A DNA stretch of 64,000 nt from Escherichia coli 042 (GCF_000027125.1 NC_017626.1); one strand, 5' to 3'. Positions 15,005 to 42,990 are shown, counted from the stretch's first letter. The notes: generated by a model from the sequence alone, not told the origin. Numbers and translations: made by a program.

Positions 15005-15402
15005 CGCTTCAGTTCCTGTATCAGCAGAGTCAGGAGCTTTTCGCTGACATTGCCATTGAAGCGGAGCGTCCCGTGCCGGAACGTTACCTCACAGCTGATA
15101 CTGAGGGTTTCCGGGTCCTCTGCGAGCGATTCTGGCTGTTCGGCAGCTGCATCGAGAGTCACAGGAAGTAGCTGGGGGCTCTCTGAAGAAGGTAATAGCA
15201 GCTTTCCCTCGCGCCATTGTTGTCGCCATTTGAACAACAGATTGGCGTTAATGCCATTTTCAAGAGCAAGTTTTGAGATGGATATCCCGGGTTCACAGGA
15301 GGCAGCAACGAGCAGCTGTTTAAATTCGGGAGGATAATTAGGGAAGCCTTTTCGCCTGCCGGGAGTCACATTTTTCTGCATATCTGACACTTTGGTTCCC
15401 AC
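15001..15402 (-). CDS. IS66 Orf1 (TnpA-like, helix-turn-helix)
   Basis: 133-aa ORF overlapping orf2 start by 4 nt; ...RRKGFPNYPPEFKQLLVAASCEPGISISKLALENGINANLLFKWRQQ... Confidence 0.85.
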   Translation of the reverse strand: MGTKVSDMQKNVTPGRRKGFPNYPPEFKQLLVAASCEPGISISKLALENGINANLLFKWRQQWREGKLLLPSSESPQLLPVTLDAAAEQPESLAEDPETLSISCEVTFRHGTLRFNGNVSEKLLTLLIQELKR

Positions 15403-15735: not shown

Positions 15736-16170
15736 TTACAGCCTCTGTAACGGATTATCAGCCCTGGCATCTTCCGACGGCACCTCCTGCCGCCCCCACG
15801 CCCTGCTGTATACCCCGGTACCGCAGCGTGGGCAGCACTTTTCCCCCTCATAATCTTCGTCACACATCACACAAAACCACTTTCTCACCTTCACCGTATA
15901 ATCCGGAACCGTCATGCCCTGCAGATGCAAACGACGGGCCTCTTTCTCTGCCGGGTCAAGCCAGGTACATCGCAGCAGGATTTTTTCAGCGACAGTCATC
16001 TGGTCATGTTCAAACCACGGTGGTTGTCCGTCATTGCCCCGCTGAAGTGTTAACGGGCATCCACAGGACACACAGCACAAAACGTCCTGTCGGTTGTGCT
16101 TCGCAGCTTCTTTCGCCGTAACAAAATGGCCTTTGCTGTCATTCGCCATATAACAGTTCAGAATTCGCAT
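15736..16170 (-). CDS. hypothetical cysteine-rich (zinc-ribbon-like) protein, paralog A
   Basis: Start set at MRILNCYMANDSKG, preceded by AGGAGG; CxxC clusters (CCVSCGC, CVMCDEDYEGEKCCPRCG) and PWFEH motif. Confidence 0.5.
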   Translation of the reverse strand: MRILNCYMANDSKGHFVTAKEAAKHNRQDVLCCVSCGCPLTLQRGNDGQPPWFEHDQMTVAEKILLRCTWLDPAEKEARRLHLQGMTVPDYTVKVRKWFCVMCDEDYEGEKCCPRCGTGVYSRAWGRQEVPSEDARADNPLQRL

Positions 16171-16565
16171 ATTTCCTCCTGAGTTGTCCGGGGAATACTG
16201 AATCCTCCGGTCTGGCAGTGTGTGCAGTACTGCTCCCCATAATAATCGTGGTGACATTGTCTGCAGTGCCAGCTGGCTTTACGCACCACGGGTAAGGCAT
16301 CCGGTACGAATTGCTGCAGACGTTTAATCAACTGTATTTCTCTGCGCTCCGGCCTGACATAAGGGCACTGTTGACCGTGCTCTGTCAGCCTGTCGTCAGT
16401 GTGTTCAAACCAGGGAAGTTCAGTTTCGTATTGCGGATGGTATCTGAGTGCACTGCCACACAAGTGGCAGGTGTAGTTAGCATAAGGTGCGGCCTGTGCA
16501 GTACGGGCGCCCGTCAGACGTCCGTTGCCATCAAGAGCGATAAAGGATTTTGCGTACATAGTCAT
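16158..16565 (-). CDS. hypothetical cysteine-rich (zinc-ribbon-like) protein, paralog B
   Basis: 135-aa; CHLCGS, CRQCHHDYYGEQYCTHCQ and LPWFEH motifs; 3-prime end overlaps start of paralog A by 13 nt. Confidence 0.5.
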   Translation of the reverse strand: MTMYAKSFIALDGNGRLTGARTAQAAPYANYTCHLCGSALRYHPQYETELPWFEHTDDRLTEHGQQCPYVRPERREIQLIKRLQQFVPDALPVVRKASWHCRQCHHDYYGEQYCTHCQTGGFSIPRTTQEEICEF

Positions 16566-16818: not shown

Positions 16819-17424
16819 TCAACTCCGGCTACAGCCAAAATTGCGCTCACCGGTGCAGTGAGCTTTGGTATGCTCCTTCGCCAGATAGTCAGCACGTTCC
16901 AGCACTTGCTGAAAGCCGGTGTCATCATTACGCGCCAGCCACACCGCCGGCCAGGCCGGAAAATGCACCAGCGTGGCATGGCACCCGACATCCACTCCCA
17001 GGGCACTGCACCACGCCTGTTTAATCATCCCGGCCAGAGACTCCGGAGCGCGGTAATCACCGGCACGACACCAGGTATCCCGGTTGACCAGCAGCATCAG
17101 GTGATAGTGTTTTTTACCTTTGCACTCCCCAAACTCCCGGGCCCAGACGTAATGCAGGGTTGTGGGATGCACGCGTTTACCTTCCCGATGCTTACGTTTC
17201 TGGTAAGCGTCGATTCGGGCTTTCAGGGCATTGATGAAGCGGGATATCACAGCTGCGTCCGTTGCTGCCGGTACATCCGGGAGACGCAGGTCAACCCGCA
17301 ATGCCGTCAGGCGGGGATGAACATTCAGTGCGTGCCGCACCGTCTCACGAATACGTTGCTGCCAGAAGGGGTTGTATTTGTAGGTCATGGTTAAATCTCC
17401 GTATGGTTCATACGGAATAGCCAC
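16819..17424 (-). CDS. inovirus Gp2-like / YfjJ-YagK family protein (prophage-associated)
   Basis: 201-aa translation ...MTYKYNPFWQQRIRETVRHALNVHPRLTALRVDLRLP... recalled as the YagK/YfjJ family; true start may be the internal Met at 17388. Confidence 0.6.
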   Translation of the reverse strand: MAIPYEPYGDLTMTYKYNPFWQQRIRETVRHALNVHPRLTALRVDLRLPDVPAATDAAVISRFINALKARIDAYQKRKHREGKRVHPTTLHYVWAREFGECKGKKHYHLMLLVNRDTWCRAGDYRAPESLAGMIKQAWCSALGVDVGCHATLVHFPAWPAVWLARNDDTGFQQVLERADYLAKEHTKAHCTGERNFGCSRS

Positions 17425-17787: not shown

Positions 17788-19016
17788 GATAACGGTTCAT
17801 GTATCCCCTGAGCTGACAGTGTACCGTGTATATTAAGCGTAACCGACAGGTTCTCCTTCATACCATATTAAATTTTCCAGGGATTGCCGCTGCCTTATTT
17901 CGTCCCATACAGGAAAACTCATCTGGGTTTCTGACAAATACGCGAAACTCACAGCCCCTCAATATCAACCACACGTTGTAAGCCGGTAATACCTGAAAAT
18001 CAGCCTATTACCGCCCACGCCTCCGGCACCATTCCCTTTTGATTTCGAATTCTTTGTTGTCGCTATACCGCTTAATGTTCCCGGTCCTCCGGTGCAGATA
18101 ACACCGGAGTCATCGTAGCGCTGCTTCAATATTCAGGTGACATATTTCCAGACGGAAGCCGGCGCGCGATCGTAAAGTTTGTTCATTGTCAGTTCTGCCA
18201 GCCGGTTGTCAACGGCAGAGTTAAAGGCTTCCAGCTCCGCAAGGGTAAGTTTATAACGCGTGTGGGAATTCACTTTTCCCGCGTCTCCTGACGTATTACG
18301 GGCTGCCACTTACCAGGTGTCCCGCAATACAGCCTTAGTGTTCCGTTATCGGGGATCCGGACGCACCGCAACAACCGGGGAAGTATTTCTGGTTTAGAGC
18401 AGTGTCAAGAGGGATTTCTCAGCCCCTCACTCACCGGCTCAGTCTCAGGGCAGGAGCATTAATACGCTCAGTTCATGTCTTATACAGGAATGGGCACAGG
18501 GGGAGCTGGCGTGTCACTGCTGATTTTACGCATCAGCGTTCATGTATCTGCACTCTGATACATGAACGATTCACAGCGCTCTGTTACCGGAGAGATTTAC
18601 TCTCTTAGCTTACTCTGGCAAATCCTTTACGTTACTCTCTGATGACTTCTTATATTTATAATACCAATCAGACAGCCTTATCCCATCGGTGATATCAGTC
18701 TCCTCCTCGCCAGGAACGGGCTGACTCACTGTAACCACCTCCGAAAACAACTCTGCAATTATCAGAACGCCTGCTTCTCTCCCTGTCCTCACGAAAACTA
18801 TCCCCTCTTTATCGCGCGTGCGTGCGGAAGCATCTTTTCGCAACAACCACCCGGTATACCGGTACGGCTCAGCCACCGCAACCTCCCCGTTTATCTCCTG
18901 GCGGTCACATTCCCGATTATTTTTTACGTTTCTCCCCGGTTGTTATGCCGGTGAAGGTGGCGCGCTGTTTTCATGACCACACCGGCTGGTTTAACAACAT
19001 CCGGAGGAACATTCTC

Positions 19017-19223
19017 ATGGCTACCCCAGTTTCACTGATGGATGACCAGATGGTCGACATGGCATTTATCACTCAACTGACCGGCCTGACAGATAAGTGG
19101 TTTTACAGGCTCATCAGGGATGGGGCCTTTCCGGCTCCCATCAAGCTGGGCCGCAGCTCCCGCTGGCTGAAAAGTGAAGTGGAAGCCTGGCTGCAGGCGC
19201 GTATTGCACAGCCCCGCCCGTAA
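19017..19223 (+). CDS. AlpA-family prophage transcriptional regulator (tentative)
   Basis: 68 codons from MATPVSLMDD...; ...FYRLIRDGAFPAPIKLGRSSRWLKSEVEAWLQ... resembles AlpA-type regulators. Track ORF 18822..19223 is over-extended. Confidence 0.55.
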   Translation: MATPVSLMDDQMVDMAFITQLTGLTDKWFYRLIRDGAFPAPIKLGRSSRWLKSEVEAWLQARIAQPRP

Positions 19224-21122: not shown

Positions 21123-22001
21123 ATGGTTCAGAAAATTTTGTCGGATAAGGTTATGAATGAAAGAACAAATGCGTATTACTCTTATTATCTTGGAGGGCGT
21201 AATATCTCCGTACTGCCCCTTAATGTTTATGATCCCCCGGAACGTTTTATCGCTTACATAAAAAAAAACAGAGAAAATCTGAACATCACACTTTCAGATT
21301 TTGAACTTGAACAAATAATTTCTGGTATGCGTCTGAAGGCCCTGGCCTTCCTGGTCCCCCTGGAAAAAATATCCTGGATCGCGGGCAGTGAACGCGCATG
21401 CTTATTTTCCTGGTATCTGTTGATGCAGTTTATCCAGAATAACAGGGCAAAAATAAGCGCAGACTTGCTTCAAAAGAATAAACTGTATCTTAAAGAAGAG
21501 TATCTGGAAGGGAATGCCTTCCCGTCGGACTCATCGACACAGTTCAGACAAATACTCAGAGTTCTCGATATTCTTTCTGATAAGAATTTGCGGGATGAGT
21601 GGATAATCCAGACCAAAGACAGATGGATGCGGGCATTTAAATCAAAGAGTCCTTTCAGTTACCTCCTCCCGGAGAACGAACATGAATGCATATGGACATG
21701 GAATTATTTGAAGGGAAAAAATATTGCACTGGAAAAACTGGCCAGTTTTCCTGGTTCTGCTGATATTTACCACGCAATTCACCTTTCATTTGACATATGG
21801 GTTACCTGTCCACTCACCTCACCTGACGATATAAAAAATTTCAGAAACAGTTTCAATAAGGCCAAGGCGCAGCGCAAGTACAAAAAATGCAGGAAGATAA
21901 AGTCAATGTACAGTTTTTTCTTGACGCAGAAACCAGGGCGCAGCTCAAAGAATTATCGAGGGTCAGAAGACTCAGTACCGGCGAAATGCTGCATGACCTG
22001 A
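21123..22001 (+). CDS. hypothetical protein (AT-rich; 3-prime end uncertain)
   Basis: 292-aa ORF; low-complexity tail, with an alternative frame carrying a conserved-looking peptide (see finding at 21887-22039). Confidence 0.4.
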   Translation: MVQKILSDKVMNERTNAYYSYYLGGRNISVLPLNVYDPPERFIAYIKKNRENLNITLSDFELEQIISGMRLKALAFLVPLEKISWIAGSERACLFSWYLLMQFIQNNRAKISADLLQKNKLYLKEEYLEGNAFPSDSSTQFRQILRVLDILSDKNLRDEWIIQTKDRWMRAFKSKSPFSYLLPENEHECIWTWNYLKGKNIALEKLASFPGSADIYHAIHLSFDIWVTCPLTSPDDIKNFRNSFNKAKAQRKYKKCRKIKSMYSFFLTQKPGRSSKNYRGSEDSVPAKCCMT

Positions 22002-22123
22002 TTGTTGAAGAGTATAAAAGGTACCGACATTCCAGATAATTTCAGACATATATTATCTCTGTGAGTCCCCCGCCACCTTTCCGGTGTGCGGGGGTTTTGT
22101 CTTTTTTCACCGGGAATACATGT

Positions 22124-22996
22124 ATGAATCCGTCTGATGCCATTGAGGCAATTGAAAAACCGCTCTCCTCCCTGCCTTACTCACTTTCCCGTCACATCCA
22201 GGAACATCTGCGCAAACTCACCAGTCACGAACCCGTGATTGGCATTATGGGTAAAAGCGGGGCCGGTAAATCCTCACTCTGTAATGCACTGTTTCAGGGG
22301 GAGGTCACCCCGGTCAGTGATGTTCACGCCGGCACCCGGGAAGTGCGGCGCTTCCGTCTGAGTGGCCACGGTCACAGCATGATTATCACTGACCTGCCCG
22401 GGGTGGGCGAGAGCCGGGACAGGGATGCAGAGTATGAAGCCCTGTACCGTGACATTCTGCCTGAACTTGACCTGGTACTGTGGCTGATTAAAGCCGATGA
22501 CCGTGCCCTGTCTGTGGATGAGTATTTCTGGCGACACATACTGCACCGGGGACATCAGCAGGTGCTGTTTGTGGTGACGCAGGCCGACAAAACGGAGCCC
22601 TGCCATGAATGGGATATGGCCGGCATTCAGCCTTCTCCCGCACAGGCACAGAACATTCGTGAGAAAACAGATGCGGTATTCCGGCTGTTCCGGCCCGTAC
22701 ATCCGGTTGTGGCCGTATCGGCCTGCACCGGCTGGGAACTGGATACGCTGGTCAGTGCGCTCATGACAGCGCTTCCCGACCATGCCGCCAGTCCCCTGAT
22801 GACCCGCCTGCAGGACGAGCTGCGCACGGAATCTGTCCGGTCTCAGGCCCGTGAACAGTTTACCGGTGCGGTGGACCGGATATTTGACACGGCGGAGAGC
22901 GTCTGTATTGCCTCTGTTGCACGCACGGTTCTGCGTGCCGTCCGTGACTCGGTGGTCTCTGTTGCCCGCGCTGTATGGAACTGGATTTTCTTCTGA
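22124..22996 (+). CDS. YfjP/YeeP-family GTPase (CP4-type prophage)
   Basis: Start at MNPSDAIEAIEK; P-loop GKSGAGKSS, DLPG; near-identical to recalled K-12 YfjP. Confidence 0.85.
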   Translation: MNPSDAIEAIEKPLSSLPYSLSRHIQEHLRKLTSHEPVIGIMGKSGAGKSSLCNALFQGEVTPVSDVHAGTREVRRFRLSGHGHSMIITDLPGVGESRDRDAEYEALYRDILPELDLVLWLIKADDRALSVDEYFWRHILHRGHQQVLFVVTQADKTEPCHEWDMAGIQPSPAQAQNIREKTDAVFRLFRPVHPVVAVSACTGWELDTLVSALMTALPDHAASPLMTRLQDELRTESVRSQAREQFTGAVDRIFDTAESVCIASVARTVLRAVRDSVVSVARAVWNWIFF

Positions 22997-23368
22997 ACAG
23001 TCTGCCAGGGGAAATGCCTGATTACATTGCGTTAACCAACTGAAAACATGACACAAACACCTCATGCTCCTCCTGTTTCTCTTGCGTGACCGCCTTGCAA
23101 TCAATAGAATAAAACGATCGATAAAACAGGTATCGATCGTTACTATCGATCGTTTATAGTGGTTAATGGTCTGCGAAAAGGCAGCTGAATCTCTTCATCA
23201 TGCAGAACGGAATTGCACACAACGGACTGATACTTCTCTGGCGGATGAGAGAGGGGAAGCATTTATGCCCGGGAAAAACCACTTTATCTGACCATGCTGT
23301 TTTGTACCTGCCGGTATCCACATTTGTGGGTACCGGCTTTTTTATTCACCCTCTGTAAGGAAAAGCTG

Positions 23369-26215
23369 ATGAAACGACATCTGAACACCAGCTACAGGCT
23401 GGTATGGAATCACATTACGGGCACCCTGGTGGTGGCTTCCGAACTGGCGCGCTCACGGGGAAAACGCACCGGTGTGGCGGTTGCGCTGTCTCTTGCTGCT
23501 GTCACGTCAGTCCCGGTACTGGCTGCTGACACGGTCGTACAGGCGGGAGAAACCGTGAGCGGCGGAACACTGACAAATCATGACAACCAGATTGTCTTCG
23601 GTACGGCCAACGGAATGACCATCAGTACCGGTCTGGAGTATGGGCCGGATAACGAGGCCAATACCGGCGGACAATGGATACAAAATGGCGGTATCGCCAA
23701 CAACACTACTGTCACCGGTGGTGGTCTTCAGAGAGTGAATGCCGGAGGAAGCGTTTCAGACACGGTTATCAGTGCCGGAGGCGGACAGAGCCTTCAGGGG
23801 CAGGCAGTGAACACCACTCTGAACGGCGGTGAGCAGTGGGTACATGAAGGCGGGATTGCAACGGGTACCGTCATTAATGAGAAGGGCTGGCAGGCCGTCA
23901 AATCCGGCGCAATGGCAACCGACACGGTTGTGAATACCGGCGCGGAAGGGGGACCGGATGCAGAAAATGGTGATACCGGGCAGTTTGTTCGCGGAAATGC
24001 CGTACGTACCACTATCAATGAAAATGGTCGTCAGATTGTGGCTGCTGAAGGAACAGCAAATACCACTGTGGTTTATGCCGGCGGCGACCAGACGGTACAC
24101 GGGCATGCGCTGGATACCACACTGAATGGCGGTTACCAGTATGTGCACAACGGAGGCACAGCCTCTGACACGGTTGTAAACAGTGACGGCTGGCAGATTG
24201 TCAAGGAAGGTGGTCTGGCGGATTTCACCACCGTTAACCAGAAAGGCAAACTGCAGGTGAACGCCGGTGGTACAGCCACGAATGTCACCCTGAAGCAGGG
24301 AGGCGCACTGGTCACCAGTACGGCGGCAACCGTCACCGGCAGCAACCGTCTGGGCAATTTCACTGTGGAAAACGGTAATGCTGACGGTGTTGTTCTGGAG
24401 TCCGGTGGTCGCCTGGATGTACTGGAGGGCCATTCAGCCTGGAAAACACTGGTGGATGACGGCGGAACCCTGGCAGTGTCTGCCGGTGGTAAGGCAACAG
24501 ATGTCACCATGACATCCGGTAGTGCCCTGATTGCAGACAGTGGTGCCACTGTTGAGGGGACCAATGCCAGCGGTAAGTTCAGTATTGATGGCACATCCGG
24601 TCAGGCCAGCGGACTGCTGCTGGAAAATGGCGGCAGCTTTACGGTTAATGCCGGAGGACTGGCCAGCAACACCACTGTCGGACATCGTGGAACACTGACG
24701 CTGGCTGCCGGGGGAAGTCTGAGTGGCAGAACACAGCTCAGTAAAGGTGCCAGCATGGTACTGAATGGCGATGTGGTCAGTACCGGCGATATTGTTAACG
24801 CAGGGGAGATTCGCTTTGATAATCAGACGACACCGGATGCCGCGCTGAGCCGTGCTGTTGCAAAAGGCGACTCCCCGGTAACGTTCCATAAACTGACCAC
24901 CAGTAACCTCACCGGTCAGGGTGGCACCATCAATATGCGTGTTCGCCTTGATGGCAGCAATACCTCTGACCAGCTGGTGATTAATGGTGGTCAGGCAACC
25001 GGCAAAACCTGGCTTGCGTTTACAAATGTCGGAAACAGTAACCTCGGGGTGGCAACCTCCGGACAGGGTATCCGGGTTGTGGATGCACAGAATGGCGCCA
25101 CCACAGAAGAAGGTGCGTTTGCCCTGAGTCGCCCGCTTCAGGCCGGCGCCTTTAACTACACCCTGAACCGTGACAGCGATGAAGACTGGTACCTGCGCAG
25201 TGAAAATGCTTATCGTGCTGAAGTCCCCCTGTATACATCCATGCTGACACAGGCAATGGACTATGACCGGATTCTGGCAGGCTCCCGCAGCCATCAGACC
25301 GGTGTAAACGGTGAAAATAACAGCGTCCGTCTCAGCATTCAGGGCGGTCATCTCGGTCACGATAACAACGGCGGTATTGCCCGTGGAGCCACGCCGGAAA
25401 GCAGCGGCAGCTATGGCTTCGTCCGTCTGGAGGGTGACCTGCTCAGAACAGAGGTTGCCGGTATGTCTCTGACGACAGGGGTGCATGGTGCCGCAGGCCA
25501 TTCTTCCGTTGATGTTAAGGATGATGACGGTTCCCGCGCCGGCACGGTCCGGGATGATGCCGGCAGCCTGGGCGGATACCTGAATCTGACACACACGTCC
25601 TCCGGCCTGTGGGCTGACATTGTGGCACAGGGAACCCGCCACAGCATGAAAGCGTCATCGGACAATAACGACTTCCGCGCCCGCGGCTGGGGCTGGCTGG
25701 GCTCACTGGAAACCGGTCTGCCCTTCAGTATCACTGACAACCTGATGCTGGAGCCACAACTGCAGTATACCTGGCAGGGACTTTCCCTGGATGACGGCCA
25801 GGATAACGCCGGTTATGTGAAGTTCGGGCATGGCAGTGCACAACATGTGCGTGCCGGTTTCCGTCTGGGCAGCCACAACGATATGAGCTTTGGTGAAGGC
25901 ACCTCATCCCGTGACACCCTGCGCGACAGTGCAAAACACCGTGTGCGTGAACTGCCGGTGAACTGGTGGGTACAGCCTTCTGTTATCCGCACCTTCAGTT
26001 CCCGGGGTGACATGAGCATGGGGACAGCCGCCGCCGGCAGTAACATGACGTTCTCACCGTCCCGGAATGGCACGTCACTGGACCTGCAGGCCGGACTGGA
26101 AGCCCGTGTCCGGGAAAATATCACCCTGGGCGTTCAGGCCGGTTATGCCCACAGTGTCAGCGGCAGCAGCGCTGAAGGTTATAACGGTCAGGCCACGCTG
26201 AATGTGACTTTCTGA
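23369..26215 (+). CDS. flu: antigen 43 (Ag43) self-associating autotransporter adhesin
   Basis: Start at [25 protein letters not shown]; repetitive beta-helix passenger; C-terminal beta-barrel ending ...GQATLNVTF. 948 aa here. Confidence 0.9.
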
Positions 26216-26249
26216 TAATCAGGTCACTCTCCTTCAGGCCCCGGTCATC

Positions 26250-26444
26250 ATGACCGGGGCTTTTTACTTTCAGGGAGCAACAGATATGCCGGGTTGTACA
26301 TCACGTTTATTGCCCGAAGGCCCTTTCTCACGCGAACAGGCTGTTGCCGTCAAAACAGCTTACCGCAATGTGTTTACTGAAGATGACCAGGGAACATATT
26401 CCCGGCTGGTTATCCGTAATGCTGAAGGTCAGTTGCGCTGGTGA
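26250..26444 (+). CDS. small conserved prophage protein (DUF905-like, tentative)
   Basis: 64-aa ORF between flu and the DUF932 gene, position typical of CP4-like islands. Confidence 0.4.
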
Positions 26445-26598
26445 TGCCGGAACACAGCTTAATACTCAGCTCGCCAGTTAAGGGCTTCTCAGACAATAAA
26501 CGTCATTCATTTCATCTGTCAGGCCGCGTCTTCTCCGGGAGACGCAGCTTTTTCATTTATTACACCAGTAAATCGTAACCACCGATAAGGAGCAAATT

Positions 26599-27417
26599 AT
26601 GCGACTAGCCAGTCGTTTTGGTTATGCGAACCAGATACGCCGTGACCGTCCGCTGACACACGAAGAACTGATGCACTATGTTCCCAGTATTTTCGGTGAA
26701 GACCGGCATACTTCCCGCAGTAAACGATATGCGTACATTCCCACCATCACCGTACTGGAAAGCCTGCAGCAGGAAGGTTTTCAGCCATTCTTCGCCTGCC
26801 AGACCCGCGTGCGCGACCCGGGCCGCCGGGGATACACAAAACACATGCTGCGTCTGCGGCGGGCCGGAGAGATAAACGGAGAACATGTCCCTGAAATTAT
26901 TCTGCTCAACTCTCATGACGGTACCTCCAGCTACCAGATGCTGCCGGGTTACTTCAGATTCGTCTGCCAGAATGGCTGCGTCTGCGGTCAGTCTCTGGGG
27001 GAAGTGCGTGTTCCACACCGGGGAAATGTGGTGGAGAAAGTTATCGAAGGGGCTTACGAAGTGGTGGGGGTTTTTGACCGGATTGAGGAAAAGCGTGATG
27101 CCATGCAGTCGCTGGTCCTGCCGCCACCGGCACGCCAGGCGCTGGCACAGGCGGCACTGACTTACCGTTATGGTGACGAACATCAGCCAGTCACCACCGC
27201 TGACATTCTGACGCCACGACGCCGGGAGGATTACGGTAAGGACCTGTGGAGTACTTATCAGACCATCCAGGAGAATATGCTGAAAGGCGGGATTTCCGGC
27301 CGCAGTGCAAAAGGAAAACGTATCCACACCCGTGCCATTCACAACATCGACACCGATATTAAGCTCAACCGCGCATTGTGGGTAATGGCAGAAACGCTGC
27401 TGGAGAGCCTGCGCTGA
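26599..27417 (+). CDS. DUF932 / YfjQ-like protein
   Basis: 272-aa MRLASRFGYANQIRRDRPLTHEELMHYVPSIFGEDRH...; recalled as the YfjQ family. Confidence 0.75.
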   Translation: MRLASRFGYANQIRRDRPLTHEELMHYVPSIFGEDRHTSRSKRYAYIPTITVLESLQQEGFQPFFACQTRVRDPGRRGYTKHMLRLRRAGEINGEHVPEIILLNSHDGTSSYQMLPGYFRFVCQNGCVCGQSLGEVRVPHRGNVVEKVIEGAYEVVGVFDRIEEKRDAMQSLVLPPPARQALAQAALTYRYGDEHQPVTTADILTPRRREDYGKDLWSTYQTIQENMLKGGISGRSAKGKRIHTRAIHNIDTDIKLNRALWVMAETLLESLR

Positions 27418-27758
27418 TGCAGCATGTCCCTGAAGGCGTGATTCAGGCACCAGAATCACCCGACGCCCCGGAGGCGCTGCCGGGGTGTCGTTCCATTTCT
27501 GATGATGACCTGTGCGCCTGGTGTACCCGTCTGCTTTACCGTCCCGGAGAAATCAGTCTGTGCAGACTGAGTATACAGGCAATGGCATCTGGCCATCCGT
27601 CTGTGACCGGAACGGTTACGCGTACGGCTGTCCGGAATTTCAGCCGAATATCATTCATCCCTGATATTACCGGGTCATCACGGTCAGTGATGAACGTGAT
27701 GTTGCCAGGTCCCGACCTTTACTCCCTCTCATTTATTCACATTACAAGGATTTCATAC

Positions 27759-28232
27759 ATGAAAACATTGTCTCAGAACACCACCTCTTCGGCCTGTGCA
27801 CCGGAGACTGACCTGCAACAACTGGTTGCCACCCTCGTCCCTGATGAACAGCGCATCAGCTTCTGGCCGCAGCACTTTGGCCTCATTCCACAGTGGGTGA
27901 CCCTGGAGCCCCGTGTCTTCGGCTGGATGGACCGTCTGTGCGAAGACTACTGCGGTGGTATCTGGAATCTGTACACCCTGAACAACGGCGGGGCATTTAT
28001 GGCACCCGAACCGGATGACGATGATGACGAAACATGGGTACTGTTCAATGCCATGAACGGTAACCGCGCTGAAATGAGTCCGGAAGCTGCCGGCATTGCT
28101 GCCTGTCTGATGACGTACAGTCATCATGCCTGTCGTACGGAGTGTTATGCCATGACGGTCCATTATTACCGGCTGCGGGATTACGCCCTGCAGCATCCGG
28201 AATGCAGCGCCATTATGCGCATCATCGACTGA
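27759..28232 (+). CDS. antirestriction protein (KlcA/ArdB-like, YfjX family)
   Basis: Start at MKTLSQNTTSS; 157 aa with acidic stretch EPDDDDDE. Track ORF 27378..28232 is over-extended. Confidence 0.75.
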   Translation: MKTLSQNTTSSACAPETDLQQLVATLVPDEQRISFWPQHFGLIPQWVTLEPRVFGWMDRLCEDYCGGIWNLYTLNNGGAFMAPEPDDDDDETWVLFNAMNGNRAEMSPEAAGIAACLMTYSHHACRTECYAMTVHYYRLRDYALQHPECSAIMRIID

Positions 28233-28724
28233 ATGGAGAGAAGTACAATGCAACAGCTTTCCTTTCTGCCCGGAGAGATGACGCCCGGCGAGCGCAGCCT
28301 CATTCAACGGGCCCTGAAAACCCTGGACCGCCATCTTCATGAACCCGGCGTGGCCTTCACCTCCACCCGTGCGGCACGAGAATGGCTGATTCTGAACATG
28401 GCGGGACTGGAGCGTGAAGAGTTCCGGGTGCTGTATCTGAACAACCAGAATCAGCTGATTGCCGGTGAAACCCTCTTCACCGGCACCATCAACCGCACGG
28501 AAGTCCATCCCCGTGAAGTGATTAAACGCGCCCTGTATCACAATGCCGCTGCTGTGGTGCTGGCACACAATCACCCGTCCGGTGAAGTCACACCCAGCAA
28601 GGCAGACCGCCTTATCACGGAACGTCTGGTACAGGCACTGGGCCTGGTGGATATCCGGGTGCCGGACCATCTGATAGTCGGTGGCAGCCAGGTTTTCTCC
28701 TTTGCCGAACATGGTCTGCTTTAA
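28233..28724 (+). CDS. RadC-like JAB-domain protein (YeeS/YfjY family)
   Basis: JAMM motif HNHPSGEVTPSKADRLIT. Confidence 0.8.
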   Translation: MERSTMQQLSFLPGEMTPGERSLIQRALKTLDRHLHEPGVAFTSTRAAREWLILNMAGLEREEFRVLYLNNQNQLIAGETLFTGTINRTEVHPREVIKRALYHNAAAVVLAHNHPSGEVTPSKADRLITERLVQALGLVDIRVPDHLIVGGSQVFSFAEHGLL

Positions 28725-28786
28725 CCCGTCACAACCACATCACACCTGTTTTCACTTTTATCTTCTGTCTTCAGAGGTATCCCACC

Positions 28787-29008
28787 ATGAAAATCATCAC
28801 CCGTGGCGAAGCCATGCATATTCACCGTCAGCATCCGGCATCCCGTCTTTTTCCGTTCTGTACCGGCAAATACCGCTGGCACGGCAGTGCTGAAGCGTAT
28901 ACCGGTCGTGAAGTGCAGGATATTCCCGGTGTGCTGGCCGTGTTTGCAGAACGCCGTAAGGACAGTTTTGGTCCGTATGTCCGGCTGATGAGCGTCACCC
29001 TGAACTGA
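28787..29008 (+). CDS. DUF987 small protein (YeeT-like)
   Basis: 73-aa MKIITRGEAMHIHRQHPASRLFPFCTGKYRWHG... Confidence 0.6.
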   Translation: MKIITRGEAMHIHRQHPASRLFPFCTGKYRWHGSAEAYTGREVQDIPGVLAVFAERRKDSFGPYVRLMSVTLN

Positions 29009-29170
29009 TGTTCCGTCACCCGGAAAACGAGTACGACTGGCTGAGCTCAGACGCCGCTGTGGATGAGGTCCTGCTCATCAACGAATACACCTTTACCGAA
29101 GCCGGTCTGCGCGCCGGCTGACCCGTCATCGTTAAACTATCATTCACCGATTTTCTGTGAGGATTTTATC

Positions 29171-29539
29171 GTGTCAGACACACTTTCCGGGACAACGCAT
29201 CCCGATGACAATGACGACCATCCCTGGTGGGGACTACCCTGCACAGTGACGCCCTGTTTCGGCGCCCGTCTGGTGCAGGAGGGTAACCGGTTGCATTACC
29301 TTGCCGACCGTGCCGGTATCAGAGGCCGGTTCAGAGATGCGGATGCGTACCCTCTGGACCAGGCCTTTCCGCTGCTGATGAAACAACTGGAATTAATGCT
29401 CACCAGTGGTGAACTGAATCCCCGCCATCAGCATACCGTGACACTGTATGCGAAGGGGCTGACCTGTGAAGCCGACACCCTCGGCTCCTGTGGTTACGTT
29501 TATCTGGCTGTTTATCCGACACCTGAAACGAAAAAGTAA
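29171..29539 (+). CDS. cbeA: CbeA/YeeU-family type IV antitoxin
   Basis: GTG start; [52 protein letters not shown]... close to K-12 YeeU. Confidence 0.8.
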
Positions 29540-29628
29540 ACCACCGGAATAACCTTCTGCTCCGGCCTGGTGTTTTCACCACGCCACTGTCCCATTTTTT
29601 ATCTCTGCATATCAGGAAAATCTTCAGT

Positions 29629-30003
29629 ATGAAAACATTACCCGACACGCATGTACGGGAGGTATCGTGCTGCCCGTCTCCCGTCACCATCTGGCAGACA
29701 CAGCTCACCCGACTGCTGGACCAGCACTACGGCCTTACGCTGAATGACACACCGTTCGTGGATGAACGTGTGATTGAGCAGCATATTGAGGCAGGCATTT
29801 CACTGTGTGACGCGGTGAACTTTCTCGTTGAAAAATACGCGCTGGTACGTACCGACCAGTCGGGATTCAGCGCAGGAGCCTCGTCGCAGTTAATCAACAG
29901 CATTGATATTCTCCGGGCTCGCCGGGCAACAGGCCTGATGACCCGCCACAACTACAGAACGGTGAACAATATCACCCTGGGTAAGTATCCGGAGGCGAAA
30001 TGA
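29629..30003 (+). CDS. cbtA: CbtA/YeeV-family type IV toxin (cytoskeleton-binding)
   Basis: 124-aa [43 protein letters not shown]...; immediately downstream of antitoxin. Confidence 0.8.
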
Positions 30004-30142
30004 TGAAACTGGCCCTGACACTGGAAGCCGACAGTGTTAACGTACAGGCACTGAATATGGGGCGAATTGTCGTTGACATTGATGGTGTTAATCTCGCTGA
30101 ACTGATTAACATGGTCTGCGATAACGGCTACTGGATTTGCCC

Positions 30143-31048
30143 CTATATTTCCAGACACCTGTTATCACTTAACCCATTACTGGCTTGCTGCCGTAGATAT
30201 TCCCGTGGCGAGCGATAACCCAGTGCACTATGCGGATGCCATTCGTTATAATGCTCGAACGCCTCTGCAAGGTTCTTTGCTGCCGTTAACCCGTCTGGTT
30301 TGGGCATGACACTGATGTAGTCACGCTTTATCGTTTTCACGAAGCTCTCTGCTATGCCGTTACTCTCCGGACTCCGCACCGCCGTGTTCTTCGGTTCAGG
30401 CCCCAACATCCGGGCAAACTGCCGTGTTTCATTAGCCCGGTAGCATGAACCATTATCCGTCAGCCACTCTACTGGAGACGCCGGAAGCTCGTTGCCGAAA
30501 CGGCGTTCCACCGCTCCCAGCATGACGTCCTGTACTGTTTCACTGTTGAAGCCGCCCGTAGTGACCGCCCAGTGCAGTGCCTCACGGTCACAGCAGTCCA
30601 GCGCGAACGTGACTCGCAGTTTTTCTCCGTTATCACAGCGGAACTCGAACCCGTCAGAGCACCATCGCTGATTACTTTCTTTCACAGCCACTCTGCCGGT
30701 ATGTGCCCGTTTCGATGGCGGTACAGCGGGTTTTCGCTCAAGCAACAGCGCATTCTGGCGCATGATCCGGTAAATACGTTTGGCATTGATCGCAGGCATA
30801 CCATCAAGTTCGGCCTGTCTACGAAGCAGCGCCCATACCCGACGATAACCATATGTGGGCAGCTCTCCGATAACATGGTGTATACGGAGAAGCACATCCG
30901 TATCATCTGAGTGACGGCTGCGGCGACCATCTTTCCAGTCATCGGTTCGTCTGAGAATGACGTGCAACTGCGCACGCGACACCCGGAGACAACGGCTGAC
31001 TAAGCTTACTCCCCATCCCCGGGCAATAAGGGCGCGTGCGCTATCCAC
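30143..31048 (-). CDS. insD: IS2 transposase OrfB (InsD)
   Basis: 301-aa integrase-core transposase. Confidence 0.9.
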
Positions 31049-31416
31049 TTTTTTGCACGCCCATATTCAACGGCTTCTTTAAGGAGTTCATTTTCCATCG
31101 TTTTTTTGCCGAGCAGGCGCTGGAGTTCTTTAATCTGCTTCATGGCGGCAGCAAGTTCAGAGGCAGGAACGACCTGTTCTCCTGCGGCCACAGCAGTAAG
31201 ACTTCCCTCCTGGTATTGCTTGCGCCAGAGAAATAACTGGCTGGCTGCCACACCGTGTTGCCGGGCAACAAGGGAGACTGTCATTCCCGGTTCAAAACTC
31301 TGCTGAACAATAGCGATCTTTTCCTGTGTAGTACGCCGTCTGCGTTTCTCCGGTCCTAAGACATCAATCATCTGCTCTCCAATGACTAGTCTAAAAACTA
31401 GTATTAAGACTATCAC
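31006..31416 (-). CDS. insC: IS2 OrfA (InsC)
   Basis: Helix-turn-helix ...[47 protein letters not shown]... Confidence 0.9.
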
Positions 31417-31854
31417 TTAAATAAGTGATATTGGTTGTTTGGAGATTCAGGGGGCCAGTCTAGCTACTCCCTTCGTGTTGTTGATGAATCTGACCGGACC
31501 TCAGCAGACTGCACGCCACCATTTGTTGCCCTTACCGGCATACGCTGCAGTACCGCACATATCACGGAAACGGACAACGCCTGGCTGTACTCGCTGTCAC
31601 ACCAGACCAGTGACTTCGGTGAATCAGAATGGATTCATTTTACCGGTACCGGTTATCTGTTACGTACCGATGCGTGGTCATACCCGGTTCTGCGGCTTAA
31701 GCGCCTGGGGCTGTCAAAAACGTTCCGTCGTCTGGTCGTCACACTCATCCGGCGTTATGGTGTCAGTCTCATTCATCTGGATGCCAGTGCCGGATATCTG
31801 CCGGGTTTACCCACTTTCGACTGGTAATCCGGAAATTCACAACATGAAATCATT

Positions 31855-32020
31855 AACCACGGAAACAGCGCTGGATATTCTGATTACGTGGCTGCAGGAC
31901 AATATCGACTGCGAATCGGGAATTATCTTCGACAACGATGAGGATAAAACAGGTTCGGCAGCACTGTTGCGCTGTATCGAACAGGCCAGGGAGGGTATCC
32001 GTACCCTGCGCCAACAGTAA
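31855..32020 (+). CDS. hypothetical small protein (55 aa)
   Basis: MKSLTTETALDILITWLQDNIDCESGIIFDNDEDKTGSAALLRCIEQAREGIRTLRQQ; start chosen within track ORF 31439..32020. Confidence 0.35.
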
Positions 32021-32929: not shown

Positions 32930-35821
32930 ATGATTGGTACAACACCTTATCATGCGAAATATTTTGCGCATGAACTTTCCATTCTTCATTCAAACAATGG
33001 GGTGGACCGTCTGTCTCAATCGCTGTTTGATGCAAGCGTAGATCTAAACCCTCATCAAATTGAGGCGGCTCTTTTTGCTATCGAAAATCCGCTAAGCAAA
33101 GGTGTTGTGCTTGCCGATGAAGTTGGTTTGGGTAAAACCATTGAAGCTGGACTAGTGCTTTGCCAGTTGTGGGCTGAAAGAAAACGTAAACTGTTGATCA
33201 TTTGTCCTGCTTCACTGCGTCGCCAATGGGCGAGCGAGTTACAGGAAAAGTTCAATCTACCTTCTCAGGTGTTGGACGCGAAAATGTATAGCCAGCTTCA
33301 AAAAGAAGGGATCCATAATCCCTTAAATAATAAATCGATCACTATCATGTCATACCACTATGCTGCTCGGTTAGAAGAGAAATTGGTGGCTGAAATGTGG
33401 GATCTGGTTGTTATCGACGAAGCCCATAAACTGCGTAATGCTCATCGAGAAAGCAACAAAATGGGGCAAGCGTTAAAGCGTGCGCTTGATGGGCGGAAGA
33501 AATTACTACTGACCGCAACGCCTTTACAGAACTCGTTGATGGAACTGTATGGCATGTCGACGCTTATAGATGAACATACCTTCGGCGAAGTTAAAGCGTT
33601 CAGAAAGCAATATATGCAGGCAGATAGCGATATTGCGGAGTTGAAGGGGCGATTGTCGCGTTTTATCAAACGAACTCTACGCAAGAATGTGCTGGAGTAT
33701 ATCAAGTATACAGAACGTAAAGCGATCACTATTCCTTTCTATCCGAGCGAACAGGAGCAGGATCTTTATGAACGCGTACAAAAATTGCTTGAACGTGAGG
33801 ATAGCTATGCCTTACCAAAACGACACCGGCATCTGACGGGGCTTATACTCAGAAAACTACTTTCCTCAAGTACGAAAGCCGTATTGAATAACTTGCAGAT
33901 CCTTAAGACTCGTTTAGAAAGGTTAAAGCTGGAAGGTATCGTTGAAGATGATATGGACATCATCCAACAGATCATAATGGATGATGATCTTGAAGATGAC
34001 ATCGTTGAAGATGCCGAATCAGTAGCGCCAGATACAGAGTGCAAATCTGTGGATTCAGATGCGCTTCAGGCAGAAATCAATGAGCTGGAATCACTCATTG
34101 TCAAAGCAGAACAGATTGGCACTGATACCAAATCAAAAGAGTTGCTTTCTGGCCTGGAGCAAGGTTTTGCACAGCTTGCCGAAATGGGGGCTGCAAAAAA
34201 AGTCATCATCTTCACGGAGTCGATGCGAACTCAACAGTACCTTGCACATTTTCTGGAAAACAATGGCTACCAGGGAAAAGTAGTAACCTTTAGTGGCACA
34301 AACAATACACCGCAGGCAAACAAGATCTACCAGCAATGGCGCGAGGAATATCAGGGATCTTCTCGTATTACCGGGTCGGCGCAAATTGATAAACGCTCGG
34401 CTTTGATCGACCACTTCAAAGATCATGCTGAAATCATGATAGCTACAGAAGCTGCAGCTGAAGGGGTGAACCTGCAATTTTGTTCGCTACTGATCAATTA
34501 CGATTTCCCCTGGAACCCACAACGCATTGAACAGCGTATTGGACGTTGTCACCGATACGGGCAAAAATTTGATGTGGTTGTTATTAACTTCCTCAATCAG
34601 CGAAACCAGGCCGATCAACGCGTTCTTGAACTCTTAACTGAAAAGTTCAGCCTGTTTGATGGCGTGTTTGGCGCATCGGATAGTGTGCTTGGCAGCATAG
34701 AAAATGGTGTGGATTTTGAAAAAAGGATCCAGTCAATTTATGAGTCATGCCGTACCCCCGAGGAGATAGAGCTGGCTTTTGAAAGGTTGCAGAAAGAGCT
34801 GGAAGATGAAATCAATCTCAAGATGCAGAAGACGCAAGAACAGTTGCTTGAGCATTTTGATGAAGATATTCACGATATCCTTAAAATAAGGCTTGATGAA
34901 GCTCGGGAGCGCCTGGATAAAGTCGGTCGTTGGTTTTGGGCCGTGACCTGTCAGCAGCTCAAACAATATGCTGATTTTGATCATGAGCATCATCGTTTCA
35001 CTTTACGTGAATCAGTCAATGAACTGCCTGTCGGGCAGTACCAGCTGTTGCGCAAAGATGGCAGGCAAAATAGTGCGTTACAAATGCAGGATCACCACAG
35101 TTTTGCATATCGGATCAATCATCCGCTGGGTGAGTACGTCATTGAGGGAGCCAAAGCCCAGGAGACGAAAACAGCTGAAGTCATCTTCGATTACAGTAAC
35201 CACACAACGAAAGTTTCGGTGGCTGAGCAGCTGAAAGGGCAATCAGGATGGTTAACACTAAATTTGCTTACTGTTGATGCGTTTAACAGGCAGCAATTTT
35301 TAGTCTTTACCGCGAAAACTGACAACGGACGTGTGGTAGATGGTGAAGCTTGTAAACGTCTGTTCAACTTGTCTGCAATAACCAACGAAAAGCTGGATAA
35401 TTCGGCAAGTTTAGATGCATTACCTGATGACTTGATCTTACTCAAGAACAGGCAAATTGACGCCAGGCTTGCAGAAGTTTTGGAGCAGAACTATGTCCTT
35501 TTTGAAGCGGAAAGAGATAAGCTGGAAAAATGGGCTGAAGACATGATCTTTGCGGCGGAAGAAGCATTACGCGATACCAAAATGCAAATCAAGTCGTTGA
35601 AGCGAGAAGCCAGGCTGGCGCAATCGATCGAAGAACAAAAGCAAAACCAGGAAAAGCTTAAGCTACTGGAACGGCAGCAGAAGCGTCAACGTATGGAAAT
35701 TTTTGACATTGAAGATGAGATCGCCGACAAGAGGGATGAACTCATCAGTGCCCTTGAAGAGCGGATGAAGCAAAAGACGGATATCACCGAGCTGTTTACC
35801 ATCCGCTGGAAAGTTATTTAA
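32930..35821 (+). CDS. SNF2-family ATPase, RapA/HepA-like, short N-terminus
   Basis: 963 aa. Motif I LADEVGLGKTIEAG, motif II VVIDEAHKLRN, motif III LLLTATPLQN, motif VI QRIGRCHRYGQ; C-terminal coiled-coil-like region. Several blocks resemble RapA; RapA N-terminal domains absent. Confidence 0.85.
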   Translation: MIGTTPYHAKYFAHELSILHSNNGVDRLSQSLFDASVDLNPHQIEAALFAIENPLSKGVVLADEVGLGKTIEAGLVLCQLWAERKRKLLIICPASLRRQWASELQEKFNLPSQVLDAKMYSQLQKEGIHNPLNNKSITIMSYHYAARLEEKLVAEMWDLVVIDEAHKLRNAHRESNKMGQALKRALDGRKKLLLTATPLQNSLMELYGMSTLIDEHTFGEVKAFRKQYMQADSDIAELKGRLSRFIKRTLRKNVLEYIKYTERKAITIPFYPSEQEQDLYERVQKLLEREDSYALPKRHRHLTGLILRKLLSSSTKAVLNNLQILKTRLERLKLEGIVEDDMDIIQQIIMDDDLEDDIVEDAESVAPDTECKSVDSDALQAEINELESLIVKAEQIGTDTKSKELLSGLEQGFAQLAEMGAAKKVIIFTESMRTQQYLAHFLENNGYQGKVVTFSGTNNTPQANKIYQQWREEYQGSSRITGSAQIDKRSALIDHFKDHAEIMIATEAAAEGVNLQFCSLLINYDFPWNPQRIEQRIGRCHRYGQKFDVVVINFLNQRNQADQRVLELLTEKFSLFDGVFGASDSVLGSIENGVDFEKRIQSIYESCRTPEEIELAFERLQKELEDEINLKMQKTQEQLLEHFDEDIHDILKIRLDEARERLDKVGRWFWAVTCQQLKQYADFDHEHHRFTLRESVNELPVGQYQLLRKDGRQNSALQMQDHHSFAYRINHPLGEYVIEGAKAQETKTAEVIFDYSNHTTKVSVAEQLKGQSGWLTLNLLTVDAFNRQQFLVFTAKTDNGRVVDGEACKRLFNLSAITNEKLDNSASLDALPDDLILLKNRQIDARLAEVLEQNYVLFEAERDKLEKWAEDMIFAAEEALRDTKMQIKSLKREARLAQSIEEQKQNQEKLKLLERQQKRQRMEIFDIEDEIADKRDELISALEERMKQKTDITELFTIRWKVI

Positions 35822-35826
35822 TTGAT

Positions 35827-38800
35827 TTGAAAGAGAAAATAATGAGTAAGTACAACGAATTAGTTAAGAAGTTAAAAGAAATTTTTCAGATTGATCGACC
35901 AGAACTGGATTTCGGTATTTATCGTATTTTAAATGCACGTGCTGATGAAATTAACGACTATCTGGATAATAAGCTGAAGGCCAAAATCCAGTCTGCGCTG
36001 GCGGATGCAGGAAATGCCAATAAATCAGAATTAGAACATCAGTTGCAACTGACAATAAAAGCGGCAACTGATGCGGGTGTAGACCCTGCTGATAGCCCAA
36101 AAGTACAGGAGCTTAAAAAGCAACTGGCGGCTATGGCATCCGGAGCAAATGAGCATGAAAATGCAGTATTTTCCCATCTGCTCACTTTCTTTTCGCGTTA
36201 TTATGACAACGGCGATTTTATCAGCAAACGCCGTTATAAAGGTAATACCTACGCCATCCCCTATTCTGGCGAAGAAGTGATGTTGCACTGGGCAAATAAG
36301 GACCAGTACTACATTAAAAGCGGTGAAAACTTCGCTAATTATTCGTTCAAATTAGAAGACGGTCGTAAAGTTAGCTTTAAATTGCTCGCAGCGGACACAG
36401 CAAAAGATAACCGTAAAGATAATGAATTAGATCGCTGCTTTGTACTTATTGAGCCGCATGTTCGTACCAAAATTGATGAAGAAGGCGATGAGTACGAACA
36501 AGAATATAAGCCAGTAGAAGTGGTGAAAACTTCATCTGTGGTTGACGGTAAACTCGTTGAAACAGAAGAGTTAGTTATTCATTTCGAATATAAGGCAATG
36601 AAAAAGGGCACTAAGCAGGATGCTTTAGTGCAGTCCGCTATTTCAAAAATTCTGGCTGATAAAACAGTACAACAGCATTGGGTTGATCTTGCTAAACGTG
36701 CGCCAACCGAAAAAAATCCGTCACGTACAGAGTTGGAGCGTCATTTAACAACATATACCCAACGTAATACGGCTGACTACTTTATTCATAAAGATCTCGG
36801 TGGCTTTTTAACGAACGAACTGGATTTTTATATTAAAAATGAAGTAATGAATCTCGATAATGTGCAAAATGCAGAAGTGTTTGCTAATATTGAGAAACAA
36901 CTGCGCATGATTCAATGTTTGCGTGCTGTTGCGCTGGAACTCATCACTTTTTTGGCACAGATTGAGAATTTCCAAAAGAAACTTTGGACTAAGAAAAAGT
37001 TTGTTGTAGAGACAAACTATATATTTACCGTAGATAAGTTACCAGAGGAATTATATTCAATTGTCATTAAGAATGATGCCCAATGGGAACAATGGAAGCA
37101 ATTAGGTTTCCTCAGCGATTTTTCGGGAGATAGAGAGAAAACTCTGAAAGAAAAACAAGGGTTAATTGTTGATACTTCATTATTTGATTCCAAGTTCAAA
37201 GAGAAATTTATCAACAATATCGCTGATGTTGACACAAATGTTTCCGCTTATTTATATAGTGGAGATAATTATCAAGTGTTAAATCTTATTAAAATAAAAT
37301 ATAATAATAAAGTTGATGGTATATATATAGATCCACCTTATAATACCAATGCGTCTGAGATTTTATACAAAAACGGTTATAAGGATAGCTCATGGTGTTC
37401 TTTAATGAGTTCTCGTTTAGAGATAAGTAAATCCTTATTAAAAGAAAATGCAGCTACTTGTACAACTATTGATGAGTATGAAGTTGCTAATTTGGAATTA
37501 TTGCTAAAAGAAACGTTTACAGGATATCAAATCAGACCTGTTGTTATTGAATATAACCATCGAGGACGAGTTAAAAGTAATTTCGCTATTACCCATGAAT
37601 ATGCTTTATGGACCTTACCAGAAAATAAAGATGTAATATCGAGACAAGTTGAAATATCAGAAGAAATTAGGCGTAACTTGCGTAGAACTGGTTCAGGTTC
37701 TACTCGTGCCGAATCTGAAAGTCAATTTTATGGCATCGAAGTTGACAATAATACCCTCGAGATTGTCAATGTAACCGAAGCTTTACCAAGTTTAGATTCA
37801 GCAATTCCTACGCATCTAAATAAAGATACAACAATGGTATGGCCAGTAGATGACCAAGGGGTTGAGCGGCGCTGGTACTATGGGCGAGATCGTGTTATTC
37901 GCGAAGCTAAAGAAGGTACTGTTTGGGCGAAAAGAATAAAAGGTGAGATACAAATACATTACAGACAAGCAGGAAAACCTAAAATGCGTAAATCTGTATG
38001 GATTGGTCCAAAGCTTGACGCAAGTACCTATGGTTCGGAACTATTAAATAGTTTGTTTAACGTGACTCAGATTAATTTTTCTTTTCCAAAAAGTATTTAT
38101 GCGGTTAAGGAATGTTTAGAGTCGCTTAGTAATTCGAAGTATGCTCATTTCTTAGACTATTTTGCTGGCTCTGGTACTACAGGGCATGCAGTGGTAGATA
38201 TGAATAGGGATGATAATGGTTTTCGAAAATTTAGCTTGGTCGAACAAGGTGAATATTTTTATTCTGTTACCTTGCCTAGAGTAAAAAAAGCTATTTTTAC
38301 AACTGATTGGAAGTATGGAAAAGCACTAAGCTGTAATCCAGTTGAGCAGACATTAATAAAATATATTAAAATTGAGAGTTTTGAGGATACTCTTAACAAT
38401 ATAGCACTGAAACGTACTGAAACAACAAAGGATCTTTTCGACGATCTTAAAGAAATTCGAGAGGATTATGTTCTTAACTATATGCTTGAAACAGAAAGCA
38501 AAGGCTCACTACTCAATACTGATAATTTCAAAAAACCATTTAACTACGAAATGGATGTTACAACGGATTCCGCAGGTGCTACTGAGCGTAAGAACATCGA
38601 TTTAGTTGAAACTTTCAACTATCTCATTGGCTTACATGTGAAATCCATCGAATCCAATATCGAACGTGGCTATGTGCGTGTTGAAGGAACGCTACCAACT
38701 GGCGAGCGTACCCTTATTCTGTGGCGCGATTGCGACAAGATCGGCTATGAAGAATTGAATAAATATGCCAACAGATTCGATTTATATGCAAAAGAAAATA

Positions 38801-38946: not shown

Positions 38947-38948
38947 GA

Positions 38949-42678: not shown

Positions 42679-42990
42679 TATGATTTTCCTGATTAATGAA
42701 TTGATATCACGATAATTATATCATGAATAGATGTAAATTTACTATGTATATAAATTAATGTACAGTTCAACATGCTAATTATTTTTTAATTTGTAATGTC
42801 GATTGGTTAATAATTGGATTCTCTTATAATGAATATATATTTACTCTGACTAGAATATTTGTAAACGTGTTTTATATTGAGATTTTAAAATTGATTTATG
42901 GCTATGTACTCATAAATAATACTTTCGGTGTCAGAAAATACTTTATCTATTACATTTAAAATTCTAGGTGAAAGATATATAATGGTTACC

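Follow-up and report, generated by a model that had tools for sequence, protein, structure and literature searches.

Here we describe positions 22124–30003 of a 64,000-nucleotide (nt) stretch of Escherichia coli 042 DNA (NC_017626.1; hereafter the window), a segment that is very probably the conserved distal arm of a genomic island of the P4-integrase (‘CP4-like’) type, made up of an adhesin, establishment genes and a toxin–antitoxin (TA) pair. The segment is an intact but ordinary block of a kind common in E. coli genomic islands. A previous reading of it, the original prediction, had proposed CP4-prophage-like cargo with antigen 43 (Ag43, encoded by flu) and a CbtA/CbeA type IV TA pair; that interpretation is supported in its essentials, and everything found here has already been described.

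The list of open reading frames (ORFs) and Pfam searches place nine gene families on the + strand in the predicted order (GTPase, flu, DUF905, DUF932, antirestriction, radC-like, DUF987, cbeA, cbtA), with Pfam E-values far beyond chance, and positions 22124 and 30003 are the ATG of the GTPase gene and the stop of cbtA (Table 1). The NCBI annotation of MARGA_4, an E. coli genome with a 99.9% identical stretch, gives the same module genes at the same coordinates, and so bears out this order as well. Two details needed correction: DUF905, previously listed as an ordinary gene, is a frameshifted pseudogene, and the module does not end at 30003, as had been proposed, but continues through a DUF5983 gene that an IS2-like insertion sequence (IS) interrupts to a small gene named DUF957. 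The block is widespread. Of 5426 complete E. coli genomes, 3565 cover at least 80% of its 8.3 kb, the median genome has six related places, and conservation across many lineages is 98–99.9%. A second copy of the module was looked for in the 64-kb window and none was found.

The order of orf46–orf55 of the SRL pathogenicity island (SRL PAI), as listed in PMC6980539 Table 2 (updating Luck et al. 2001), is exactly that of the module. Moreover, the likeness reaches well upstream, so that the whole series from about 1.3 to 32 kb in the window, fecEDCBARI through the module, matches the SRL PAI when compared by published gene lists rather than by DNA. Both run from the Fec system through a phytase-like esterase, IS66 (L0013-15), a hypothetical gene, YfjJ/inovirus Gp2, Hha and AlpA, then four hypothetical genes, the YeeP-like GTPase, Ag43, YfjQ (DUF932) and YfjX/KlcA, to YeeS, YeeT, YeeU, YeeV, YeeW and DUF957; the backbone order YfjJ, Hha, AlpA, GTPase, DUF932, ArdB, RadC, DUF987, TA pair, DUF5983 and DUF957 is found here, with other genes between AlpA and the GTPase and between the GTPase and DUF932. 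Relative to the SRL PAI the window adds IS1F, a YmgB/AriR-like gene, the DUF905 pseudogene and the IS2-like insertion, whereas the multi-resistance locus SRL is not in the window. The cargo downstream also differs, being a SNF2 and type III restriction-modification cluster here and L0010–L0012 in the SRL PAI. In MARGA_4, shf-like, capU, virK and lpxM genes are found still further upstream, on the side where the SRL PAI has its orf23-24.

A search of the window for tRNA genes found none, and none of the annotation over window positions 2001–49048 is an integrase. In the collinear MARGA_4, however, a tyrosine recombinase gene lies beside tRNA-Leu, near ahr and yjgR, some 22 kb before window position 1; it may be the integrase of the module itself or that of another mosaic layer. 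The other end of the island is marked by nanS', nanM and nanC. The SRL-like series upstream and the MARGA_4 tRNA-Leu thus point to a mosaic island located at leuX/KpLE2, SRL PAI-like without the resistance locus. The SRL PAI itself lies at serX, whereas in the closest genome the island described here occupies leuX.

Each protein was also compared by BLASTP with CP4-44, CP4-6 and CP4-57 of E. coli K-12 MG1655, the cryptic prophages whose shared module the segment had been said to match. The same families were recovered and every gene has a homologue in a K-12 cryptic prophage, but the exact order occurs in no single one of them. CP4-44 is closest (YeeP 98%, Flu 74%, YeeS 99%, YeeT 96%, CbeA 90%, CbtA 85% and YeeW 73% identity), with the order yeeP-isrC-flu-yeeR-yeeS-yeeT-cbeA-cbtA-yeeW; its DNA is collinear at 86–97% identity over yeeP, the flu ends, yeeS-yeeT and cbeA-cbtA-yeeW, and its yeeP is a truncated pseudogene whereas the copy here is intact. 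Collinearity is broken at 26258–28272, where K-12 has yeeR in place of DUF905, DUF932 and ardB. The K-12 homologues of these three genes lie only in CP4-6 and CP4-57, at 57–75% identity (YafZ/YfjQ 75%; antirestriction proteins LfgA 75% and YafX 67%; YkfF 57%), and in CP4-6 DUF932 precedes DUF905 and flu is absent. The predicted order is therefore a composite of three K-12 elements.

Table 1. Features of the module and of its upstream and downstream flanks, in window coordinates. aa, amino acids.
Feature	Position	Strand	Basis and remarks
fecEDCBARI, IS1F, YmgB/AriR-like gene (10635-10892), phytase-like esterase gene (11610-12983), IS66	1339-15402		Order as SRL PAI orf26-37
Two tandem overlapping paralogues, each with DUF7828 and a zinc ribbon	15736-16565	-	Between IS66 and the YfjJ-like gene
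YagK/YfjJ (inovirus Gp2 family) gene	16819-17388	-	Pfam YagK_YfjJ_C, E 5e-48; SRL PAI orf39
Hha/YmoA-like gene	18133-18309	-	Pfam HHA, E 1.5e-17; order as SRL PAI orf40-41
AlpA-like excisionase/regulator gene	19017-19223	+	Phage_AlpA, E 2e-8; PHROGs excisionase; order as SRL PAI orf40-41
YeeP/YkfA/YfjP-family GTPase, intact, 290 aa	22124-22996	+	Pfam MMR_HSR1, E 1e-14
IsrC/IS102-RNA-like flu leader	23114-23350	+	Rfam RF00124
Three GATC (Dam) sites, agn43 phase-variation switch	23116-23151	.	GATC at 23116, 23135 and 23148
Leader terminator hairpin and T-run	23310-23337	+	12-pair stem, then TTTTTTATT
Ag43/Cah-family autotransporter adhesin, class C4 (UTI89 type), 948 aa	23369-26215	+	NCBIfam, Pfam, PDB
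Terminator-like hairpin after flu	26236-26262	+	12-pair stem, 8 GC pairs, then T-run
DUF905 (YkfF-like) pseudogene, frameshifted	26286-26481	+	MARGA_4 annotation; Pfam partial
DUF932 protein (YfjQ/YafZ-like), 272 aa	26599-27417	+	Pfam DUF932, E 3e-52
ArdB/KlcA-type antirestriction protein, 157 aa	27759-28232	+	Pfam Antirestrict PF03230, E 8e-37
RadC-like JAB/JAMM protein (YeeS), 158 aa	28248-28724	+	Pfam RadC, E 2e-44
DUF987 protein (YeeT), 73 aa	28787-29008	+	Pfam DUF987, E 3e-40
CbeA/YeeU type IV antitoxin, 122 aa, GTG start	29171-29539	+	Pfam CbeA_antitoxin, E 1e-53
CbtA/YeeV toxin, 124 aa	29629-30003	+	Pfam CbtA_toxin, E 4e-60
DUF5983 (YeeW-like) gene, 5' part, cut by the IS	30000-30131	+	Pfam DUF5983_N
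IS2-like element, 1331 bp	30132-31462	-	95.5% identical to K-12 IS2F, full length
DUF5983 gene, 3' part	31463-31827	+	Pfam DUF5983 C-terminal domain
DUF957-named small gene	31844-32020	+	MARGA_4 annotation; position as SRL PAI orf55

Antigen 43 and its switch

The flu product has the architecture of an Ag43/Cah type Va autotransporter, with an extended signal peptide, a beta-helical passenger of AIDA repeats, an autochaperone and a C-terminal beta-barrel; Pfam finds ESPR (residues 31–73 of a 973-aa ORF), AIDA in six stretches, AC_1 and Autotransporter. At 948 aa, as predicted, it is shorter than K-12 Flu, for which the previously given length of 1039 aa proved correct too. Truncation of flu, which had been named as grounds for abandoning the prediction, was considered and ruled out, the NCBIfam equivalog model NF033177 being matched from end to end (positions 1–948 of 948; score 1991 bits, cut-off 1200).

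The protein is instead a distinct allele, and one that is already known. Residues 52–613 (passenger and autochaperone) differ from PDB 7KO9 at 11 of 562 positions, counted by hand from the printed alignment (about 98% identity), and 7KO9 is the Ag43 of uropathogenic E. coli UTI89, a class C4 protein (PMC8993888) with the composition SL1-EJ2-BL2; the boundaries of its crystal construct (53–613) fit the Ag43 of this locus. Self-association of Ag43 UTI89 uses a single interface with 13 hydrogen bonds and nine named residues (PMC8993888). All nine (G13, G30, T32, N60, D79, T80, T98, N100 and N137) are kept here at an offset of +52, and the eleven substitutions all fall outside the interface. We thus predict an L-shaped passenger with a head-to-tail self-association interface. 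The suggestion in the original prediction that the allele might differ in autoaggregation was apt, in that the near-identical Ag43 UTI89 has been reported to sediment more slowly than Ag43a and Ag43 EDL933 (PMC8993888); autoaggregation of the Ag43 described here is likewise predicted to be phase-variable, and to be comparatively slow and loose.

K-12 Flu belongs to class C1 and is 74% identical overall to this class C4 protein. Identity is about 90% up to roughly residue 340, with divergence beyond it, the translocators are nearly identical, and the net 91 residues by which the form here is shorter lie in the elbow and lower passenger. Such a pattern agrees with the shuffling of domains (SL1-EJ2-BL2) that PMC6668479 describes. 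A class-specific segment at 24400–25000 is present in 2946 of the 5426 complete genomes, so the short form is a common one.

Upstream of flu, the three GATC sites are spaced 19 and 13 nt apart, exactly as in K-12 flu; by chance, about 1.5 GATC would be expected in 373 nt. A −10-like TAGAAT, also conserved with K-12, stands just 5' of them. The leader matches RF00124 over the full model length (score 74.6 bits, gathering threshold 46, E 1.6e-10), and a permissive Rfam scan of 15–33 kb found no structured RNA besides this IS102/IsrC match. In K-12 the first GATC is the start of isrC and the same geometry is seen here, so that the RNA is in effect the flu leader; CP4-44 has the same three-GATC switch and IsrC leader. 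The leader terminator, about 30 nt 5' of the flu start, is nearly identical to that of K-12.

The Dam/OxyR mechanism of agn43 phase variation is established (Wallecha et al. 2002; Correnti et al. 2002; both cited in PMC11741368). By analogy with the family, the first ~35 bases transcribed from the agn43 promoter here would carry the three GATC sites; Dam methylation of these sites would keep OxyR from binding and leave agn43 ON, OxyR on the unmethylated sites would turn it OFF, and an IsrC-like leader ending in a terminator hairpin would precede the flu coding sequence.

The toxin–antitoxin pair and the predicted establishment genes

The type IV TA pair was also correctly recognized. The cbeA and cbtA genes are adjacent on the same strand, 89 nt apart, and their products are 90% and 85% identical, respectively, to the K-12 pair, the identities on which the functions proposed here are based. 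CbeA further matches PDB 2INW and 2H28 (E about 1e-75). The K-12 proteins, whose paralogues are YpjF/YfjZ and YkfI/YafW, have the same lengths (CbtA 124 aa, CbeA 122 aa); CbtA is nearly identical to its K-12 counterpart over residues 28–124 and divergent over 6–27, and the antitoxin gene differs from that of K-12 in its GTG start. F65, described as a determinant of the FtsZ interaction (PMC5624674), is invariant in an alignment of this CbtA with K-12 CbtA, YpjF and YkfI. The toxin would bind FtsZ, through F65, and MreB, blocking both division and elongation, and CbeA would counteract it by stabilizing the same filaments without binding the toxin; the likely net effect of the pair would be stabilization of the island.

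Among the remaining genes, the ardB product matches PDB 2WJ9, the ArdB of an E. coli island, across all 157 residues (E 2.7e-110), being near-identical to it and not set apart from it by anything seen in the sequence, and KlcA (2KMG) at E 3e-21; judging from these homologues, it would block type I restriction in vivo. The RadC-like JAMM metalloprotease, DUF932, DUF987 and the GTPase would be further establishment genes. In the RadC-like protein, which is 99% identical to YeeS and 78% to LfgB, the JAMM motif H-x-H-x7-S-x2-D is intact (HNHPSGEVTPSKAD, residues 107–120). LfgB, its K-12 paralogue, is reportedly a protease that cleaves the antitoxin MqsA. The DUF932 protein is 75% identical to YfjQ and YafZ, and the DUF987 protein 96% identical to YeeT. 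The GTPase carries a P-loop GKSGAGKS (G1), DLPG (G3) and a G4-like motif, and shares 98% identity with the fragment encoded by the K-12 pseudogene yeeP and about 50% with YfjP and YkfA. Searched with PADLOC, the backbone proteins gave only a weak LeoA/LeoBC-type similarity for the GTPase (E 1e-8), which we read as generic to P-loop or dynamin-like proteins.

The DUF905 ORF (26250–26444) covers only profile positions 2–46 of 70 (Pfam E 1e-14), and its homology to YkfF stops at the stop codon 26442–26444. Between DUF932 and ardB lies an unannotated gap of 340 nt (27418–27758), open in the ardB frame as part of a 284-aa GTG ORF and containing a GC-rich hairpin at 27461–27490; an Rfam scan of the gap found no match.

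Genomic island or prophage

Calling the segment prophage cargo was justified to the extent that its genes have homologues in the CP4 elements of K-12, but the name is only historical, and phage structural genes are lacking. Its value lies in what the strain carries, namely a class C4 Ag43, a CbtA/CbeA pair that looks intact and an ArdB gene, which make the locus useful for typing Ag43 alleles and islands and of little importance beyond annotation.

Some observations sit less comfortably with an intact island arm of this kind. Both DUF905 and DUF5983 are disrupted, and the window contains no integrase gene or attachment site, which together suggest a possibly immobile element. The GTPase, DUF932, DUF987, DUF5983 and DUF957 proteins are without demonstrated function, and for expression, phase variation, toxicity and anti-restriction activity at this locus we infer from homologues. 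A scan for the OxyR consensus does not discriminate, since here as in K-12 several registers match at 10–11 of 16 positions, so that the assignment of the Dam/OxyR switch rests on the conserved GATC geometry rather than on the OxyR consensus. Finally, residue 15 of CbtA is Cys and not the R15 of K-12, where R15C abolishes MreB binding (PMC5624674). We considered whether this is a natural loss of MreB binding and rejected the idea: YpjF, with a native Cys15, binds MreB and is unaffected by the reverse change C15R (PMC5624674), and in our alignment both YpjF and YkfI carry C15, so R15 is not family-wide. These paralogues and the neutral C15R thus allow no conclusion about MreB in the allele described here, for which MreB targeting remains uncertain.

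A more ambitious form of the island interpretation sees in the genes from the GTPase through DUF957 one coherent operon for establishment and anti-defence, belonging to a mobilizable island, instead of what a prophage has left behind, a possibility that we put forward tentatively and consider rather unlikely. If it were true, ArdB would disarm type I restriction and addiction to the island would come from CbtA/CbeA; antitoxins or defence regulators of the host would be cleaved by the JAMM protease, in the way reported for LfgB; anti-defence roles would also fall to the GTPase, DUF932 and DUF987; and the slot 5' of the GTPase gene would be a cargo hotspot (a 305-aa orphan gene here, rnlAB and abpAB in CP4-57).

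It is improbable, in our view, that the segment is what its K-12 relatives are called, the remnant of a true CP4-type prophage in which phage genes have decayed and the adhesin is a moron for lysogenic conversion. In the K-12 annotation the homologous regions do go by the name of cryptic prophages (CP4-44, CP4-6 and CP4-57), PHROGs families exist for DUF932, ArdB, RadC, DUF987, YfjJ and AlpA, and the logic of an AlpA-type excisionase with a P4-type integrase is phage- or satellite-like. The PHROGs matches, however, are to anti-restriction, excisionase, ‘DNA repair’ or unknown function only; genes for capsid, tail, terminase, portal and lysis are absent from them and from the annotation of 2001–49048; the same block sits in the pathogenicity island SRL PAI; and a conserved set of ArdB, RadC, DUF932 and TA genes is typical of integrative and conjugative or mobilizable elements and of plasmids.

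We hold it very improbable that the segment is a decaying, non-functional relic whose Ag43 and TA pair have lost expression or activity, as the DUF905 frameshift, the DUF5983 gene split by the IS2-like element, a frameshift at a poly-A run in the upstream 305-aa gene and the lack of an integrase in the window annotation might suggest, given that nine of the 11 module genes (22124–31827) are full length with intact catalytic or interaction motifs, conservation extends to the regulatory switch, the leader and the terminators, the IS keeps a perfect 5-bp target duplication, suggestive of a recent event, and the block is as highly conserved across lineages as noted above.

Flanking genes and neighbouring cargo

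At the downstream end of the module, the 5' part of DUF5983 overlaps the cbtA stop by 4 nt, and the IS2-like element that cuts it is flanked by the target duplication GCTAC, whose perfection suggests that the insertion is recent; when the IS is taken out in silico together with one of the two GCTAC copies, a 163-aa ORF matching both DUF5983 domains reappears. The DUF957-named gene beyond it has no match in the current Pfam library and takes its name from the MARGA_4 annotation alone.

Directly 5' of the GTPase gene, in the slot that rnlAB holds in CP4-57, is the 305-aa orphan gene (21123–22040; about 40% GC), for which we found no family match in Pfam, NCBIfam, PADLOC or PHROGs. Its poly-A run is A6 here and A7 in MARGA_4, a one-base deletion that frameshifts the last ~50 residues; judged by eye, these residues look like a ribbon-helix-helix domain.

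Window positions 1–449 match ISEc52 (98.7%). On the far side of the module, at 32930–42329, is a low-GC (30–45%) cluster encoding a SNF2/DrmD-like helicase of 963 aa, a long type III methyltransferase of 1039 aa and a type III restriction enzyme of 1126 aa; all three have strong PADLOC matches, which for the methyltransferase and restriction enzyme run from end to end. No insertion breaks the cluster here, whereas in MARGA_4 an ISEc52 sits between the SNF2 and methyltransferase genes, immediately 5' of the latter (L001 34062–35311). Further downstream, at ~42990–50171 in coordinates transferred from the MARGA_4 annotation, come remnants of a phosphorothioate-dependent restriction endonuclease and an HNH nuclease, and then a truncated nanS, nanM, nanC, IS1A, a fimbrial-gene remnant and gntP. 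In K-12 the type 1 fimbrial (fim) operon lies between nanC and gntP; from the order nanC, IS1A, fimbrial remnant, gntP, most or all of this operon appears to have been deleted beside IS1.

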